A DNA stretch of 64,000 nt from NCBI RefSeq assembly GCF_016903815.1, contig NZ_CP069973.1. One strand, 5' to 3'. Position numbers and translations under genes: made by a program. The notes under the pieces are model-generated. The model made no database searches and was not told the DNA's origin. It worked only from the letters and a program-made list of their open reading frames with translations. The DNA comes from Escherichia coli. Lineage in GTDB: Bacteria > Pseudomonadota > Gammaproteobacteria > Enterobacterales > Enterobacteriaceae. Positions 4,425 to 49,557 of this stretch are shown piece after piece. The first letter of the stretch is position 1. Each line of letters opens with the position of its first letter.

Positions 4425-6326
4425 TTAATGGTCCTCCGCTGCGGCAACCGCTGGATTTTCCGCAGGCAGATCGGTGTTGTTATCACCCAGCATAATGTGG
4501 TCGAGGATCTGGCGCATCAGCGTACCAACCGCCGGACCCGCACCGCCGTTCTCCAGAATCATGGCGACAGCGACTTGCGGATTGTTGTATGGCGCAAAGG
4601 CGGTCATCAGTTTGTGGTCACGTAAACGCTCGGCAATTTTGTGCGCATTATAGGTTTCGTTCGCTTTCAGACCGAAGACCTGAGCGGTACCGGATTTCGC
4701 CGCAATTTTGTACGGTGCGCTGGCAAAGTATTTATGCGCCGTACCGTTAGGGCGGTTAGCAACACCGTACATACCGTCTTTCGCCAGCTCCCAGTAACCG
4801 GAATGAATATCGCCGACGGGCGGTTCATGCGGTTGTACCCATGGCACCTGTTTGCCGTCTTCGGCGGTGCTCATCAGCAAATGCGGAACCTTCACGATAC
4901 CGTCATTAATCAGGATCATCAGTGCCTTACTCATCTGGATTGGGGTCGCTGTCCAGTAACCCTGACCGATACCAACCGGAATGGTGTCACCCTGATACCA
5001 CGGTTTTTTAAAGCGTTTCTGTTTCCATTCGCGGGTAGGCATGTTGCCGGAACGTTCTTCCGCCAGGTCGATACCGGTGTAATGACCATAACCGAATTTA
5101 CCCATCCATTCGGAGAGGCGATCGATTCCCATATCGTAGGCCACCTGATAGAAGAAGGTATCCGCAGATTCTTCCAGCGATCTTGTGACATTCAGACGCC
5201 CGTGGCCCCATTTTTTCCAGTCACGATAACGTTTTTCCGAACCTGGCAGTTGCCACCAGCCTGGGTCAAACAGCGTCGTATTGCGCGTGATCACTCCGGC
5301 GCTCAATGCCGAAACCGCCACATAGGGTTTAACTGTAGACGCGGGAGGATAAACCCCCTGTGTAGCGCGGTTCACCAGCGGTGTATTCGGGTCGTTCAGC
5401 AAGGCGGAATAATCTTTGCTGGAGATACCGTCAACAAACAGGTTTGGGTCATAACTAGGCGTGGAAACCAGCGCCAGCACCCCACCTGTACGCGGATCGG
5501 TGACTACCACCGCTGCGCGGCTACCCGCCAGCAGCGTTTCAATATATTGCTGGAGTTTGAGATCCAGCGTCAGGTAAATATCGTGTCCGGCTTGCGGTGG
5601 GACTTCTTTTAACTGGCGGATAACACGCCCACGGTTGTTAACTTCAACCTCTTCATAACCGGTCTGACCGTGCAGCACGTCTTCATAGTAACGCTCAATG
5701 CCCAGCTTACCGATATCATGCGTTGCCGCATAGTTGGCCAGTTTGCCGTCATTATTCAGGCGTTCGACGTCTTTATCGTTGATTTTCGACACATAGCCGA
5801 TGACGTGGGTCAACGCCGAACCGTAAGGATAGTAACGACGTTTATAGCCTTTAACTTCAACACCCGGAAAACGGTACTGATTGACGGCAAAGCGAGCTAC
5901 TTGTACTTCGGTCAGGTTAGTTTTCACCGGAATGGAGGTGAAACGGTGTGAACGTGCGCGCTCTTTTCGGAATGCAGCAATATCGTCATCGGTCAGATCA
6001 ACCACGCTGCGCAAAGCGTCCAGCGTTTGCTGCACGTTATCGACTTTCTCCGGCATCATTTCTATCTGGTAGATAGTGCGGTTGAGGGCCAGAGGGATAC
6101 CGTTACGGTCGTAGATAATGCCGCGGCTGGGCGCGATAGGCACCAGCTTAATGCGGTTTTCATTAGAGCGGGTCTGGTAGTCGGTAAAGCGAACAATTTG
6201 CAGATTATACAGGTTGGCGATAAGCACGCCGGTCAGCAGCAAAATCCCCAAAAAGGCGACCAGCGCCCGGCGCACAAACAGCGCGGACTCTGCCGTATAG
6301 TCGCGAAAAGAGTTCTGTAGTTTCAT
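4425..6326 (-). CDS. mrdA: Peptidoglycan D,D-transpeptidase PBP2 (633 aa)
   Basis: 633 aa with N-terminal TM segment and transpeptidase STVK-type motif; synteny. Confidence 0.9.
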
Positions 6327-42979: not shown

Positions 42980-44620
42980 ATGGCAATCCACAATCGTGCA
43001 GGCCAACCTGCACAACAGAGTGATTTGATTAACGTCGCCCAACTGACGGCGCAATATTATGTACTGAAACCAGAAGCAGGGAATGCGGAGCACGCGGTGA
43101 AATTCGGTACTTCTGGTCACCGTGGCAGTGCAGCGCGCCACAGCTTTAACGAGCCGCACATTCTGGCGATCGCTCAGGCAATTGCTGAAGAACGTGCGAA
43201 AAACGGCATCACTGGCCCTTGCTATGTGGGTAAAGATACTCACGCTCTGTCCGAGCCTGCGTTCATTTCCGTACTGGAAGTGCTGGCAGCGAACGGCGTA
43301 GATGTTATTGTGCAGGAAAACAATGGCTTCACTCCGACGCCTGCCGTTTCCAATGCCATCCTGGTTCACAATAAAAAAGGTGGCCCGCTGGCAGACGGTA
43401 TCGTGATTACACCGTCCCATAACCCGCCGGAAGATGGTGGTATCAAGTACAATCCGCCAAATGGTGGCCCGGCTGATACCAACGTCACCAAAGTGGTGGA
43501 AGACAGGGCCAACGCACTGATGGCCGATGGCCTGAAAGGCGTGAAGCGTATCTCCCTCGACGAAGCGATGGCATCCGGTCATGTGAAAGAGCAGGATCTG
43601 GTGCAGCCGTTCGTGGAAGGGCTGGCCGATATCGTTGATATGGCGGCGATTCAGAAAGCGGGCCTGACGCTGGGCGTTGATCCGTTGGGCGGTTCCGGTA
43701 TCGAATACTGGAAGCGCATTGGCGAGTATTACAACCTCAACCTGACCATCGTTAACGATCAGGTCGATCAAACCTTCCGCTTTATGCACCTCGATAAAGA
43801 CGGTGCGATCCGTATGGACTGCTCCTCCGAGTGTGCGATGGCGGGCCTGCTGGCACTGCGTGATAAGTTCGATCTGGCGTTTGCTAACGACCCGGATTAT
43901 GACCGTCACGGTATCGTCACTCCGGCAGGTTTGATGAATCCGAACCACTACCTGGCGGTGGCGATCAACTACCTGTTCCAGCATCGTCCGCAGTGGGGCA
44001 AAGATGTTGCTGTCGGTAAAACGCTGGTTTCATCTGCGATGATCGACCGTGTGGTCAATGACTTGGGCCGTAAGCTGGTAGAAGTCCCGGTAGGTTTCAA
44101 ATGGTTTGTTGATGGTCTGTTCGACGGCAGCTTCGGCTTTGGCGGCGAAGAGAGCGCAGGGGCTTCCTTCCTGCGTTTCGACGGCACGCCGTGGTCCACC
44201 GACAAAGACGGCATCATCATGTGTCTGCTGGCGGCGGAAATCACCGCTGTCACCGGTAAGAACCCGCAGGAACACTACAACGAACTGGCAAAACGCTTTG
44301 GTGCGCCGAGCTACAACCGTTTGCAGGCAGCTGCGACTTCCGCACAAAAAGCGGCGTTGTCTAAGCTGTCTCCGGAAATGGTGAGCGCCAGCACCCTGGC
44401 AGGTGACCCGATCACCGCGCGCCTGACTGCGGCACCGGGCAATGGTGCTTCTATCGGCGGTCTGAAAGTGATGACTGACAACGGCTGGTTCGCCGCGCGT
44501 CCGTCAGGCACGGAAGACGCGTACAAGATTTATTGCGAAAGCTTCCTCGGTGAAGAGCATCGCAAGCAGATCGAGAAAGAAGCGGTTGAGATTGTTAGCG
44601 AAGTTCTGAAAAACGCGTAA
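42980..44620 (+). CDS. pgm: Phosphoglucomutase Pgm (546 aa from [10 protein letters not shown])
   Basis: Phosphoserine-loop motif (TPSHNP); seqA–pgm operon arrangement. Confidence 0.92.
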
Positions 44621-44635
44621 ACACATTAAATAAGA

Positions 44636-44667
44636 AAAAGGGCGGTCGGAAGATCGCCCTTTTTTGC
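44636..44667. terminator. Bidirectional terminator between the convergent pgm and potE genes
   Basis: aaaaagggcg-gtcggaagatc-gccctttttt. Confidence 0.6.
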
Positions 44668-44676
44668 TTTTCTTAA

Positions 44677-45996
44677 TTAACCGTGTTTATTTTTCAGTTC
44701 AAAGCGTGGTGAGACCAGACCATACAGTGTCCAACCGAGGAAGGTCACGATGGAACCGTATAGCATGGCTTCTTCCCCGGATGAGTACAGCGCATAAAAG
44801 CTGTACATCGCGCCAACAAAAGCAACAAAGTTTGCAACTTTCGCTTTTGAGGGGGGCACATTAGCGACCTTCTGAATAATGACTAATGCCGCCATTGACA
44901 GAATATACGGAATGATATTGGTCACCACGGCCAGGTTAACCAGCACGTTGAACTGACTGTTTAGCGACGGGCTAATCGTCATCAGCGCCAACCCGCTCTG
45001 GATAATCACAATGGTCAACATTCCCTGCACCGGTGCATCCACTTTGGTTACACGGGAGAAAATTTTAGGGAAGTAGCCTTCATCAGATGAAGATTTAAAC
45101 ACCTGGGCAATGGTGAACTGCCAGCCAAGCAGCGAACCGCAGCAGGACATCACCATCAGCGCCATAATGACTTTACCCACTTCTGGCGTGAACATCTGTG
45201 CGAAGGCCAGGCCAAATGGTGCCGTTGAATTTGCCAGCTCCATATTAGGCACAATCCCTGCAATCACGTTGGTGGAGACGATATAAATCACCGCCGCACC
45301 TAACGTACCGCCGAGTACCGCGATTGGCACATTACGTTCCGGGTTTTCCACTACATCAGTATTCGCACACGCAGACTCCAGACCAAGAAAAGCCCACAGC
45401 GTCATAGCGATGGAAGAACCTACCGCACTGAAGAACGGTGCATGATGCGGATTCCAGGAATCAACGTAAAGCGTCGGGCTAAACCAGAACCAGCCGATAA
45501 CGCACAGGCCTACCACCGGAATAATGACCCCCCACACGGTAATGCTACTGATTTGCCCGGTAATGCGCGCACCACCAAAGTTAGCCACGGTACAAATCCA
45601 CAGCACCCCGATGGTCGCAAGACCAATCTGCACTGGCGACAAACTCGCGCCGAGCAGTTCGGTGCCGTAACCAACCGCCGAAATAGCAATCGCGACGTTA
45701 GCAATTAGCAGTGAGACGCCGTAGGTATAGTTCGCCATAAAGTTCCCGGATTTACCGAAAGCATACTCCGCATAACCGCCCATACCGCCTGATTTACGGC
45801 TGAACATACCGCATTTTGCGAATGCCCATGCCAGTGCCATTGAGCCTACGGCTGTCACCAGCCAGGAAATAATTGAGATTGTCCCGACTTCGGCAAGCTT
45901 TGTCGGCAGCATGATGATACCGGAGCCCATCATGTTGACCATCGTCAGTATGGTTAACTGAACGACGCCCATTTTGTTCGATTTAGCCTGACTCAT
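44677..45996 (-). CDS. potE: Putrescine–ornithine antiporter PotE (439 aa)
   Basis: APC-family permease; stop/start overlap with speF. Confidence 0.92.
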   Translation of the reverse strand: MSQAKSNKMGVVQLTILTMVNMMGSGIIMLPTKLAEVGTISIISWLVTAVGSMALAWAFAKCGMFSRKSGGMGGYAEYAFGKSGNFMANYTYGVSLLIANVAIAISAVGYGTELLGASLSPVQIGLATIGVLWICTVANFGGARITGQISSITVWGVIIPVVGLCVIGWFWFSPTLYVDSWNPHHAPFFSAVGSSIAMTLWAFLGLESACANTDVVENPERNVPIAVLGGTLGAAVIYIVSTNVIAGIVPNMELANSTAPFGLAFAQMFTPEVGKVIMALMVMSCCGSLLGWQFTIAQVFKSSSDEGYFPKIFSRVTKVDAPVQGMLTIVIIQSGLALMTISPSLNSQFNVLVNLAVVTNIIPYILSMAALVIIQKVANVPPSKAKVANFVAFVGAMYSFYALYSSGEEAMLYGSIVTFLGWTLYGLVSPRFELKNKHG

Positions 45997-48191
45997 AATT
46001 TTTCCCCTTTCAACAGGGTGCTTTGCGCATCACGAGGCTTGATGACATAGCACCAAACTTGCTTACGACCATCATGTTCTTCGATATAGACACCCTGCAG
46101 CTCCGGTGCAAAACCTGGCAGCAGGTTGATCCCTTCTTCCAGAGCGCTGAAGTAACGCAAAACAGCACCACCCCAGATTTCACCCGGAACAACACACAGC
46201 ACACCCGGAGGATAAGGAAGCGCACCTTCGGCAGCGATACGGCCTTCTGCATCCGGCAGACGAACCAGCTCCACTTCACCGCGTAAATAGGCGTAGTTAG
46301 CTTCTTGCGGATTCATGCTGACGCGTGGGAAGTGTTCCTTACGGAACATCTCTTTTTGCAGTTGTTTCACGTTGTGGCGGGCATACAAATCATGCATTTC
46401 CTGGCACAACTGACGAAGGGTATAACCGGCGTAGCGCTCTTCATGCTGTTTGTAGATGGAAGGTAGCACTTCCGCCAGCGGCGCATCAGATTCCAGCAGT
46501 TTTTCGAAGCGTACCAGCAGGGCAACAAGTTGCTGAAGTTTGGCCATATCCTCCGCCGGAGTCAGCAGGAAGAGGATGGAGTTAAGATCGCATTTTTCCG
46601 GCACTACGCCATTTTCGCGCAGGAAGTTAGCAAGAATCGTCGCGGGTACACCGAATGTTTCATATTCGCCGTTACGTGCATCAATACCTGGGGTTGTCAG
46701 CAACAGTTTGCAAGGATCGACAAAGTATTGATTCTCTGCATAGCCTTCAAAAGAATGCCAGTGTTCCCCTGGTACAAACTGGAAGAAGCGCAGATCAACC
46801 GCAATTTGCGCTGTTTCATACGACTGCCAGGGTTTACCATCCACCAGTTCAGGTACGAACGGACGAATATGCTGACAGTTATCGAGGATCAGTTTGCGGG
46901 CATTAATGCCATTTACCACACAATCCATCCACATATTACGACCGCTGACACCTTCATGCATTTTGGCGTTGATATCCAGTGCGGCAAACAGCGGATAGAA
47001 CGGGCTGGTGGAGGCGTGCATCATAAAGGCGTTGTTCATGCGTTTGTGCGGTACATAACGCTGTTGCCCTTTGATGTGGCTGTCTTTTTTATGGATTTGT
47101 GAAGTTTGAGAAAAACCAGCCTGCTGTTTATGTACGGATTGCGTAACCAGAATACCCGGATCGTTCTCATTAAGATCCAGCAACAGCGGCGAACAGTCAG
47201 CCATCATCGGGATAAATTGCTCATAGCCGACCCATGCGGAGTCAAACAGAATGTAGTCACACAGATGACCAATTTTATCCACCACCTGGCGGGCGTTATA
47301 AATCGTACCGTCGTAGGTGCCTAACTGAATCACAGCGAGGCGGAAAGGACGAGCCTCTTTTGCCCGCTGCGGTGCGACTTCCGCGATCAGCTCACGCAGG
47401 TAACTTTCTTCAAAACAATGCGCATCAATGCCACCGATAAAGCCATACGGGTTACGTGCCGTTTCCAGATAAACCGGTGTTGCACCAGCCTGTAGCAACG
47501 CTCCGTGGTGGTTAGATTTGTGGTTATTGCGATCAAACAGCACCAGATCACCCGGTGTTAGCAGGGCGTTTAAAACCACTTTGTTAGAAGATGAAGTGCC
47601 ATTTAGAACGAAGTATGTTTTATCGGCATTAAACACTTTTGCCGCATGTTGCTGTGCAATGCATGGCGCGCCTTCGTGAATCAGCAGATCGCCCATTGCC
47701 ACATCCGCGTTGCATAAGTCGGAACGGAACAGCGTTTCTCCGAAGTACTCCACGAACTGATTCCCTGCCGGATGACGACGGAAAAACTCACCTCCCTGAT
47801 GACCCGGGCAGTCAAAAGCGCTATTGCCCTGATTGACATAATCGACCAGTGCGCGGAAGAAGGGCGGGCGCAGTTGCGTTTCATAATGGCTAGCAGCGGT
47901 TTCTAACTGACGTCCATAAAACTCTTTCCGTGATTCGCAATGCTCGAAGACACCAGAAATACGTGGCAGATATTCTGCTGGTACACGTTCTTCATTTGCC
48001 GTTGCAATAAAAACAGGAATGCCATAGCCAGTAGCGTCTATTTCATCGAGTTTTCCACGTTCAACATCATTGACTGATAAAATAATGGCGGCAACGTCAA
48101 TATAATTACTTTCGTCAATATTCACGCATGCACGATGAGTGGAAAAACAATCCGGGCAAGAACGGCTAACGGCAATTTTTAATTCTGACAT
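45993..48191 (-). CDS. speF: Inducible ornithine decarboxylase SpeF (start MSELK at 48191 or MNKMSELK at 48200)
   Basis: Fold-III PLP decarboxylase; PLP-lysine region (SVHKQQAGFSQTSQIHKKD). Confidence 0.92.
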   Translation of the reverse strand: MSELKIAVSRSCPDCFSTHRACVNIDESNYIDVAAIILSVNDVERGKLDEIDATGYGIPVFIATANEERVPAEYLPRISGVFEHCESRKEFYGRQLETAASHYETQLRPPFFRALVDYVNQGNSAFDCPGHQGGEFFRRHPAGNQFVEYFGETLFRSDLCNADVAMGDLLIHEGAPCIAQQHAAKVFNADKTYFVLNGTSSSNKVVLNALLTPGDLVLFDRNNHKSNHHGALLQAGATPVYLETARNPYGFIGGIDAHCFEESYLRELIAEVAPQRAKEARPFRLAVIQLGTYDGTIYNARQVVDKIGHLCDYILFDSAWVGYEQFIPMMADCSPLLLDLNENDPGILVTQSVHKQQAGFSQTSQIHKKDSHIKGQQRYVPHKRMNNAFMMHASTSPFYPLFAALDINAKMHEGVSGRNMWMDCVVNGINARKLILDNCQHIRPFVPELVDGKPWQSYETAQIAVDLRFFQFVPGEHWHSFEGYAENQYFVDPCKLLLTTPGIDARNGEYETFGVPATILANFLRENGVVPEKCDLNSILFLLTPAEDMAKLQQLVALLVRFEKLLESDAPLAEVLPSIYKQHEERYAGYTLRQLCQEMHDLYARHNVKQLQKEMFRKEHFPRVSMNPQEANYAYLRGEVELVRLPDAEGRIAAEGALPYPPGVLCVVPGEIWGGAVLRYFSALEEGINLLPGFAPELQGVYIEEHDGRKQVWCYVIKPRDAQSTLLKGEKL

Positions 48192-48500
48192 TTTGTTCAT
48201 CTCTTTATTTCAGGTAATAGCAGGTCCTCAATTTCTCAAAGGAGAAATTGATCACGCCGGAAAAAAGCAAAACCCCACCGCTGATAAATAAATCAGTAGT
48301 TTGCTTTTTGTAGATGCAATAACCCAGACCAGCCCGGTAACTGGCTATACTCGTCATACCTCAAGTTGCAAGTGCTGCGACTCGAATTATTTAGAGTTTA
48401 AAAGGGTTAGCAGTATATGAGCACCGAGGAATACAGGTATTAACCTGTAATGCTTAAAGTCAGGGAGACCTGTACGTTGGGGTGCCCTTTAGTCAGAAGA

Positions 48501-48605
48501 CTAGCGGGCATTAAAGAAATGAAAGTCAAAACTATTACGATGGGCAAACTTCATGATATGGGTTGTCCGCCTTATATGAGGCATTAAGCGGTTATTATTT
48601 TCCAT
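48501..48605 (-). CDS. speFL: speF leader arrest peptide SpeFL (34 aa; MENNNRLMPHIRRTTHIMKFAHRNSFDFHFFNAR)
   Basis: Manual minus-strand translation; matches the ornithine-sensing leader peptide as recalled; sits about 300 nt upstream of speF. Confidence 0.75.
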   Translation of the reverse strand: MENNNRLMPHIRRTTHIMKFAHRNSFDFHFFNAR

Positions 48606-48879
48606 TTACCTTTACCTCTTGCTGTGTCAGTTGAAGGTAGAGTTATTCTATCCATGAAATGGCTATAATCTGTGAAGAAGATCAACAAAAAACGATCATA
48701 CCCCAGATAATAAATCATTAATTATGAATATTGCCATATTAGATGCTGTTTTGTTACTTAAATGTTGTAATTTTGTGTTTTATATTTGCGTTAAGAAATT
48801 AAACCTGCCAAATAATAATATTTGGAGCAGGTTTAATAATAAATTAATCACTATTAAAGCGAATTTATTGAATAACAAT

Positions 48880-49557
48880 TCAAAGCATAAACCGATACCC
48901 AATACCGGTTTCAGTAATGAAATGGCGGGGGCGAGCGGGATCCTGTTCCAGTTTTTGTCGCAGATGTCCCATATAAATACGCAAATAATGACTGTGTTCG
49001 ACCGCGTTTGGCCCCCACACCTGGTTAAGGAGCTGGCGCTGGGTGAGCACTTTTCCGGCATTGTTGAGCAGCACCGCCAGCAGGCGAAACTCAATTGGTG
49101 TGAGATGCACCTCTTCCTCACCGCGATGGATCACGCGGGCGGCTAAATCGACGGTAACATCGGAAAATTTCACCAGCGGATCGGGCGCAGCGGTGGCGGA
49201 GTGGCGACGTAAAGCGACGCGCAGACGGGCCTGCAATTCGCCAATGCCAAACGGCTTACTCAGGTAATCATCCGCTCCGGCATCCAGCGCGGCGATTTTG
49301 TCGCTCTCTTCGCTGCGTGCGGAAAGCACAATCACTGGCACTGCGCTCCACTGGCGCAGGTCGCGGATAAACTCAATCCCATCACCATCGGGCAGGCCGA
49401 GATCGAGAATAATCAAATCTGGCTTACGGGTAGCCGCTTCCAGCAAGCCGCGTTGCAGCGTTTCGGCCTCATAGACGCGCATCCCGTCGCCCTCCAGCGC
49501 CGTGCGCAGAAAGCGACGAATAGCCTGTTCATCTTCAACAATCAGAACGTTTGTCAC
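48880..49557 (-). CDS. kdpE: Response regulator KdpE (OmpR family, 225 aa)
   Basis: Receiver domain (Asp in LIILDLGLPDGDG) plus winged-helix output domain. Confidence 0.93.
   Translation of the reverse strand: MTNVLIVEDEQAIRRFLRTALEGDGMRVYEAETLQRGLLEAATRKPDLIILDLGLPDGDGIEFIRDLRQWSAVPVIVLSARSEESDKIAALDAGADDYLSKPFGIGELQARLRVALRRHSATAAPDPLVKFSDVTVDLAARVIHRGEEEVHLTPIEFRLLAVLLNNAGKVLTQRQLLNQVWGPNAVEHSHYLRIYMGHLRQKLEQDPARPRHFITETGIGYRFML

Follow-up and report, generated by a model that had tools for sequence, protein, structure and literature searches.

The 56-bp spacer that separates the convergent genes pgm and potE in the stretch of Escherichia coli DNA analysed here (64,000 nucleotides, hereafter the window) is probably an uninterrupted ancestral junction that serves as a two-way terminator, and E. 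coli K-12 and its mostly phylogroup-A relatives have probably gained an island at this position. Because outgroups are without the island, its G+C content is low and the two states are spread unevenly over the phylogroups, the compact state is most likely ancestral for both the genus and the family, and the island is most likely a horizontally acquired insertion found mainly in phylogroup A. From the sequence comparison we infer both termination in either direction at the spacer hairpin and insertion instead of deletion.

The products of pgm and potE score above their NCBIfam equivalog cut-offs, and the two genes lie tail-to-tail (Table 1), with the TAA stop codon of pgm at 44618–44620 facing the stop codon of potE at 44677–44679 (TTA on the + strand). 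The seqA gene is located directly upstream of pgm, with the ybfF esterase gene farther to the left, while speF lies directly upstream of potE and overlaps it by 4 bp. The coordinates listed for speF are those of the longest open reading frame; the RefSeq start in related strains yields a protein of 732 aa. The junction is 100% identical to that of E. coli strain 7/2, and the spacer measures 55–57 bp in E. coli 7/2, ST131, O157:H7, E110019 and LWY24, and also in E. albertii. Two small open reading frames at the spacer, 44504–44626 (−, 40 aa) and 44664–44864 (+, 66 aa), were rejected as genes; both are antisense to well-supported genes and are otherwise unsupported.

Table 1. Features at and around the pgm-potE junction of the window.
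Feature	Position	Strand	Evidence
pgm, phosphoglucomutase, 546 aa plus stop	42980–44620	+	TIGR01132 equivalog, 1073.6 bits (cut-off 778), full length; named pgm in strain 7/2
pgm-potE intergenic spacer, 56 bp	44621–44676	none	Sequence and ORF coordinates
Bidirectional intrinsic-terminator-like hairpin	44634–44665	none	Folding of both strands and terminator consensus scan
Flank before hairpin, GAAAAA	44634–44639		
Left stem, GGGCGGTC	44640–44647		
Loop, GGAA	44648–44651		
Right stem, GATCGCCC	44652–44659		
Flank after hairpin, TTTTTT	44660–44665		
potE, putrescine-ornithine antiporter, 439 aa plus stop	44677–45996	−	NF007938, 856 bits (cut-off 409); TIGR04299, 849.6 bits; named potE in strain 7/2
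speF, inducible ornithine decarboxylase	45993–48200	−	TIGR04301, 1436 bits (cut-off 1310); annotation in 7/2 and E110019
kdpE, intact	48880–49557	−	tblastn with KdpE: 99% identity, residues 1–225

Between the two stop codons the spacer reads ACACATTAAATAAGAAAAA-GGGCGGTC-GGAA-GATCGCCC-TTTTTT-GCTTTTCTTAA, and the − strand of the terminator element is CCCTTTTTCTTATTT. The folding energy is −21.4 kcal/mol for RNA of the + strand (z = −5.2), a value reached by 0 of 200 shuffled sequences, and −15.6 kcal/mol for RNA of the − strand (z = −3.3), reached by 1 of 200. A consensus scan of the 2.1 kb from 43600 to 45700 found the spacer hairpin as the sole terminator-like site. The initial annotation had proposed a single bidirectional terminator between pgm and potE across 56 bp, and the spacer does hold one hairpin that folds on both strands, at exactly the coordinates given. 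The element has the sequence features of a bidirectional intrinsic terminator, with a stem-loop on both strands, a U-tract on each strand and a position past both stop codons, between which the hairpin is centred. Since an A-run on one side is matched by a T-run on the other, the form of the hairpin suits termination from either direction, and the most likely function of the spacer, judged from these features and their recurrence in other genera, is that of a bidirectional Rho-independent terminator common to the seqA-pgm and speF-potE units. At one stem position the pgm transcript has a G·U wobble and the potE transcript an A·C mismatch, a difference from which a stronger hairpin is predicted for pgm transcripts than for potE transcripts. 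A small RNA at the hairpin was considered and rejected: an Rfam scan of 44300–49500 (E ≤ 1) returned matches to the Vibrio small RNA MicX on the terminator hairpin, at 44627–44690 (+) and 44607–44674 (−), which score 23.9 and 23.7 bits, below the gathering score of 75, and are almost certainly generic hairpin matches.

K-12 differs at this site. The initial annotation had called for a comparison across E. coli genomes, and when this was carried out K-12 did not prove equally compact: in MG1655 (region b0688–b0692) the stop codons of pgm and potE are separated by 1,747 bp, as compared to 56 bp in the window. The flanks are collinear with those of the window (pgm 97.7% and potE 98.1% identical). 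On the pgm side the alignment breaks off at 44665/44666, and it picks up again before the potE stop codon, where the last ∼17 bp are homologous. In order from pgm, MG1655 carries a terminator copy almost identical to the window hairpin (t1, GGGCGGTC-GCAA-GATCGCCC-TTTTTTAC); a ∼155-bp REP/BIME-type repeat, another copy of which is found between entD and fepA; ybfP, which encodes a 164-aa lipoprotein that matched no Pfam family; ybfG, a DUF2625 pseudogene interrupted by an internal stop; 145 bp from the 3′ end of kdpE; the final ∼45 bp of the BIME-type repeat for a second time; and, immediately before the potE stop codon, a second terminator copy (t2, GGGCGATC-ATTCA-ATCGCCC-TTTTTTAC). The G+C content of the island is 43.7%, lower than that of pgm (55%) and of potE (51%). 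A tblastn search of the 64-kb window found no homologue of YbfP or YbfG, in agreement with the earlier statement that the two K-12 genes are missing here; both are annotated in the MG1655 stretch, ybfG as a pseudogene, alongside a winged-helix fragment.

Several parts of the K-12 island have relatives elsewhere. The kdpE fragment shares 89.7% identity over 145 bp with the 3′ end of kdpE in the window (48879–49023, blastn). At the MG1655 locus (L001) it occupies 6022–6166, between ybfG and potE, with intact kdpE 2.9 kb farther on and in the same orientation; recombination between the two could delete speF-potE. A foreign donor for the fragment was rejected, since it is 89–90% identical to E. 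coli kdpE and less similar to that of every other species, which marks it as E. coli-derived and decayed. The terminator copies t1 and t2 lie at L001 4518–4547 and 6207–6236, as a diverged direct repeat of ∼30 bp around the insert. The BIME-type repeat starts right after t1, and the copy between entD and fepA is without such a hairpin at its ends. To judge from its sequence, the bracketing by t1 and t2 looks like a target duplication at REP/BIME insertion. We also considered that the repeat had brought its own terminator, which would explain t2 without duplication, and rejected it: the entD-fepA copy has the hairpin at neither end, so the terminator duplication belongs to the pgm-potE locus. 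ETEC H10407 (L098 1602–2252) and NRZ105822 (L007 4186–4836) have an intact ybfG (DUF2625, Pfam E = 8e-87); the gene carries the internal stop in K-12 (L001 5249–5899) and a frameshift in GPEC464.

The compact junction is present as a contiguous match in 3,196 (59%) of 5,426 complete E. coli genomes, and 1,850 (34%) carry the K-12-type island at a coverage of at least 80%. The potE gene is absent from 381 (7%, megablast); the 5,045 genomes that have it almost equal the sum of the compact and island-bearing genomes. The compact allele was seen in ST131 and APEC O2:K1, which we take to be phylogroup B2, in O157:H7 (presumably E) and in E110019 (presumably B1). The island was seen in K-12, B derivatives and H10407, all of which we assign to phylogroup A. 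In island-negative genomes, matches to the island query are confined to the BIME repeat or the kdpE fragment. All compact E. coli hairpins examined are of the t1 type, GGGCGGTC-GSAA-GATCGCCC, with loops GGAA, GCAA or AGAA.

At least five alleles occur at the pgm-potE locus. A rare allele of the form pgm-t1-BIME-t2-potE, without ybfP and ybfG, is found in N96 and R32_14_1F (RefSeq) and in E69 (GenBank). In the three potE-less examples inspected, speF-potE and its leader region are gone and pgm lies beside kdpE, with only t1 and the BIME repeat between them in strain 18KM2445 (L002 4501–4663), and with ybfP between them in S1-ESP-03-A and AF39 (L004 and L006, 3447–4256). By gene content, such strains would be without the inducible ornithine decarboxylase/antiporter acid-response pair. 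Insertion sequences are also present at the locus: in GPEC464, IS200C separates the pgm terminator from ybfP (L005 2924–3382), and IS1A lies within the island in one MG1655 record (NZ_CP010440.1 1473154–1475585). A piece of ∼355 bp annotated as potE, 89.9% identical to the 3′ end of the window potE, resides on a 77.9-kb plasmid of the pig strain EC100 (NZ_CP182310.1 25573–25927). In E69 (CP089930.1, L015 3803–7317), potE and speF share ∼88% DNA identity with those of other E. coli and are as divergent as those of E. albertii; its Pgm protein is 100% identical to that of the window and its KdpE 99% identical to KdpE of strain 18KM2445. The E69 speF-potE looks like an imported segment. Mosaic potE genes (93.5–94.7%) are present in GPEC464 (L005) and NRZ105822 (L007).

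We sampled outgroups by a PotE scan with one genome per species, which yielded 80 Enterobacterales loci (E. fergusonii, E. marmotae and E. ruysiae not included), 54 of which hold both pgm and potE. The two genes are tail-to-tail in all 54, nearly always in the order kdpE-speF-potE-pgm-seqA, and none of the 80 loci has a tblastn match to YbfP or YbfG. The spacer has a median length of 109.5 bp and is 57 bp or shorter in nine species. E. albertii NBRC 107761 resembles the window, with a 57-bp spacer that contains a single A-run/hairpin/T-run element and no ybfP or ybfG. Its hairpin, GGGCGATC-ATTC-GATCGCCC, has a perfect palindromic stem, differs from that of the window at 5 of 20 positions and is like t2, not t1: it matches K-12 t2 at 19 of 20 positions and E69 t2 at 20 of 20. 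A qualifying stem-loop (4 or more A on the upstream side and 4 or more T on the downstream side, counted over 8 bases together with A/T at the outer stem ends) occurs somewhere in 45 of the 54 spacers, by a permissive rule applied without a shuffled baseline and with a few long-spacer hits that look weak. The hairpin sequences vary by genus, with GGAGCCGTAAGGCTCC in Salmonella and GGGAGCCTCGGCTCCC in Atlantibacter, and the recurrence of the A-run/hairpin/T-run form across genera suggests selection on structure. The site thus appears as an empty site in three respects: its flanks align collinearly with those of K-12, neither the site nor the rest of the window has the island genes, and the outgroups are uninserted. 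This upholds the initial reading, as do the majority status of the compact allele in the E. coli census, the compact spacer of E. albertii and the lack of ybfP and ybfG at this position in 54 other species.

Under the reading we favour, the spacer would be the uninterrupted junction of the convergent units seqA-pgm and speF-potE, and its hairpin would stop RNA polymerase arriving from either side in a Rho-independent manner. Nothing would have been lost in the window strain; K-12 and mostly phylogroup-A relatives would have gained a 1.69-kb composite of low G+C content (BIME-type repeat, ybfP, ybfG and kdpE 3′ fragment) that landed just after the terminator T-run, and in island strains pgm and potE would each have ended up with its own terminator, the two copies having diverged. 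The spread over the phylogroups favours a site that was never occupied in the window lineage. A secondary deletion, in which recombination between t1 and t2 removed either the BIME repeat alone or the whole island from an ancestor with two copies, is in our estimate unlikely, and it is the t1 and t2 sequences that speak for it. The K-12 island is flanked by direct repeats of ∼30 bp, AAGGGCGnTCnnnnnATCGCCCTTTTTTAC, and the compact allele consists of exactly the t1 hairpin followed by the right flank of t2. The E. albertii hairpin is matched by t2 and not by t1, and a query with a synthetic junction found a compact allele with the t2-type (albertii-type) hairpin in 0 of the 5,426 genomes; over its full length the query matched best, at 95.5% identity, to the t1-type window allele. 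An intermediate form exists in the rare allele of N96, R32_14_1F and E69, and the loops GGAA, GCAA and AGAA are common to compact alleles and to the t1 copies of island alleles. Against this, the compact state is found in B2, E and B1 and the island in A strains, so that deletion needs several independent precise events or extensive recombination, and traces of the island are absent from the outgroups. The ∼88% identity of E69 potE and speF offers another source for t2, which may have come with a foreign speF-potE segment while the native compact allele was never occupied. For K-12 itself, import of t2 with a foreign potE 3′ end was rejected, as sliding 100-bp identity to the window is 95–100% throughout and a foreign potE-speF is found only in E69.

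The direct repeats of the pgm-kdpE interval are nested, comprising the terminator copies (∼30 bp), the BIME-tail copies (∼45 bp) and the kdpE fragment with intact kdpE (145 bp). The interval could accordingly be viewed as a multi-allelic recombination hotspot, where insertion of a BIME-type element at the terminator duplicated ∼30 bp of its target and precise excision between the terminator copies produced the window allele. We regard this as quite unlikely; if true, the locus would preserve in nature the way in which REP/BIME elements insert and are lost. As for the mode of termination, it is highly improbable that head-on collision of RNA polymerases or Rho provides the operative stop, with the hairpin mainly stabilising 3′ ends. 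On the potE strand the A·C mismatch, the shorter U-run and a fold of just −15.6 kcal/mol point that way, but the canonical intrinsic form is present on both strands (an 8-pair G+C stem with A-U extension, a 4-nt loop and runs of 6 T and 5 T), and the same form recurs in many other genera with differing hairpin sequences.

The observation that pgm and potE are separated by a compact spacer is correct but ordinary, as public annotation shows the compact junction in thousands of E. coli genomes. The initial annotation had missed the BIME-type repeat, the kdpE fragment and the second terminator copy of the K-12 insert, as well as the existence of at least five alleles and the small chance that recombination between the terminator copies caused a secondary loss. 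The literature already records ybfP as variably present, with the gene among the orthologous groups enriched in phylogroup A in a published pan-genome comparison (bioRxiv 10.1101/096479). If the compact junction is indeed ancestral, K-12 does not represent the reference state here, and a gene that is “missing” relative to K-12 is one that the K-12 lineage has gained. Two side observations, that ∼7% of complete E. coli genomes are without speF-potE and that duplicated terminators bracket the K-12 insert, are of modest use for pan-genome work, and neither changes the understanding of any system.

Bidirectional terminators between convergent gene pairs are prevalent in E. coli according to a preprint (bioRxiv 10.1101/2022.10.23.513370, citing Ju et al. 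2019), which describes many of them as unlike intrinsic terminators and proposes polymerase collision as the mechanism. That work backs termination at convergent sites, not the hairpin mechanism proposed here. Like the bidirectional Rho-independent terminators of E. coli convergent pairs, the window element is a single G+C-rich stem-loop just past the two stop codons; with the A-U extension included in the stem, it lies 13 nt from pgm and 11 nt from potE. Given the A-run and the T-run at its sides, each transcript would end in a hairpin and a U-tract. The element differs from such terminators in that its stem is asymmetric, and the two directions are predicted from the folding energies of the two strands to be unequal.
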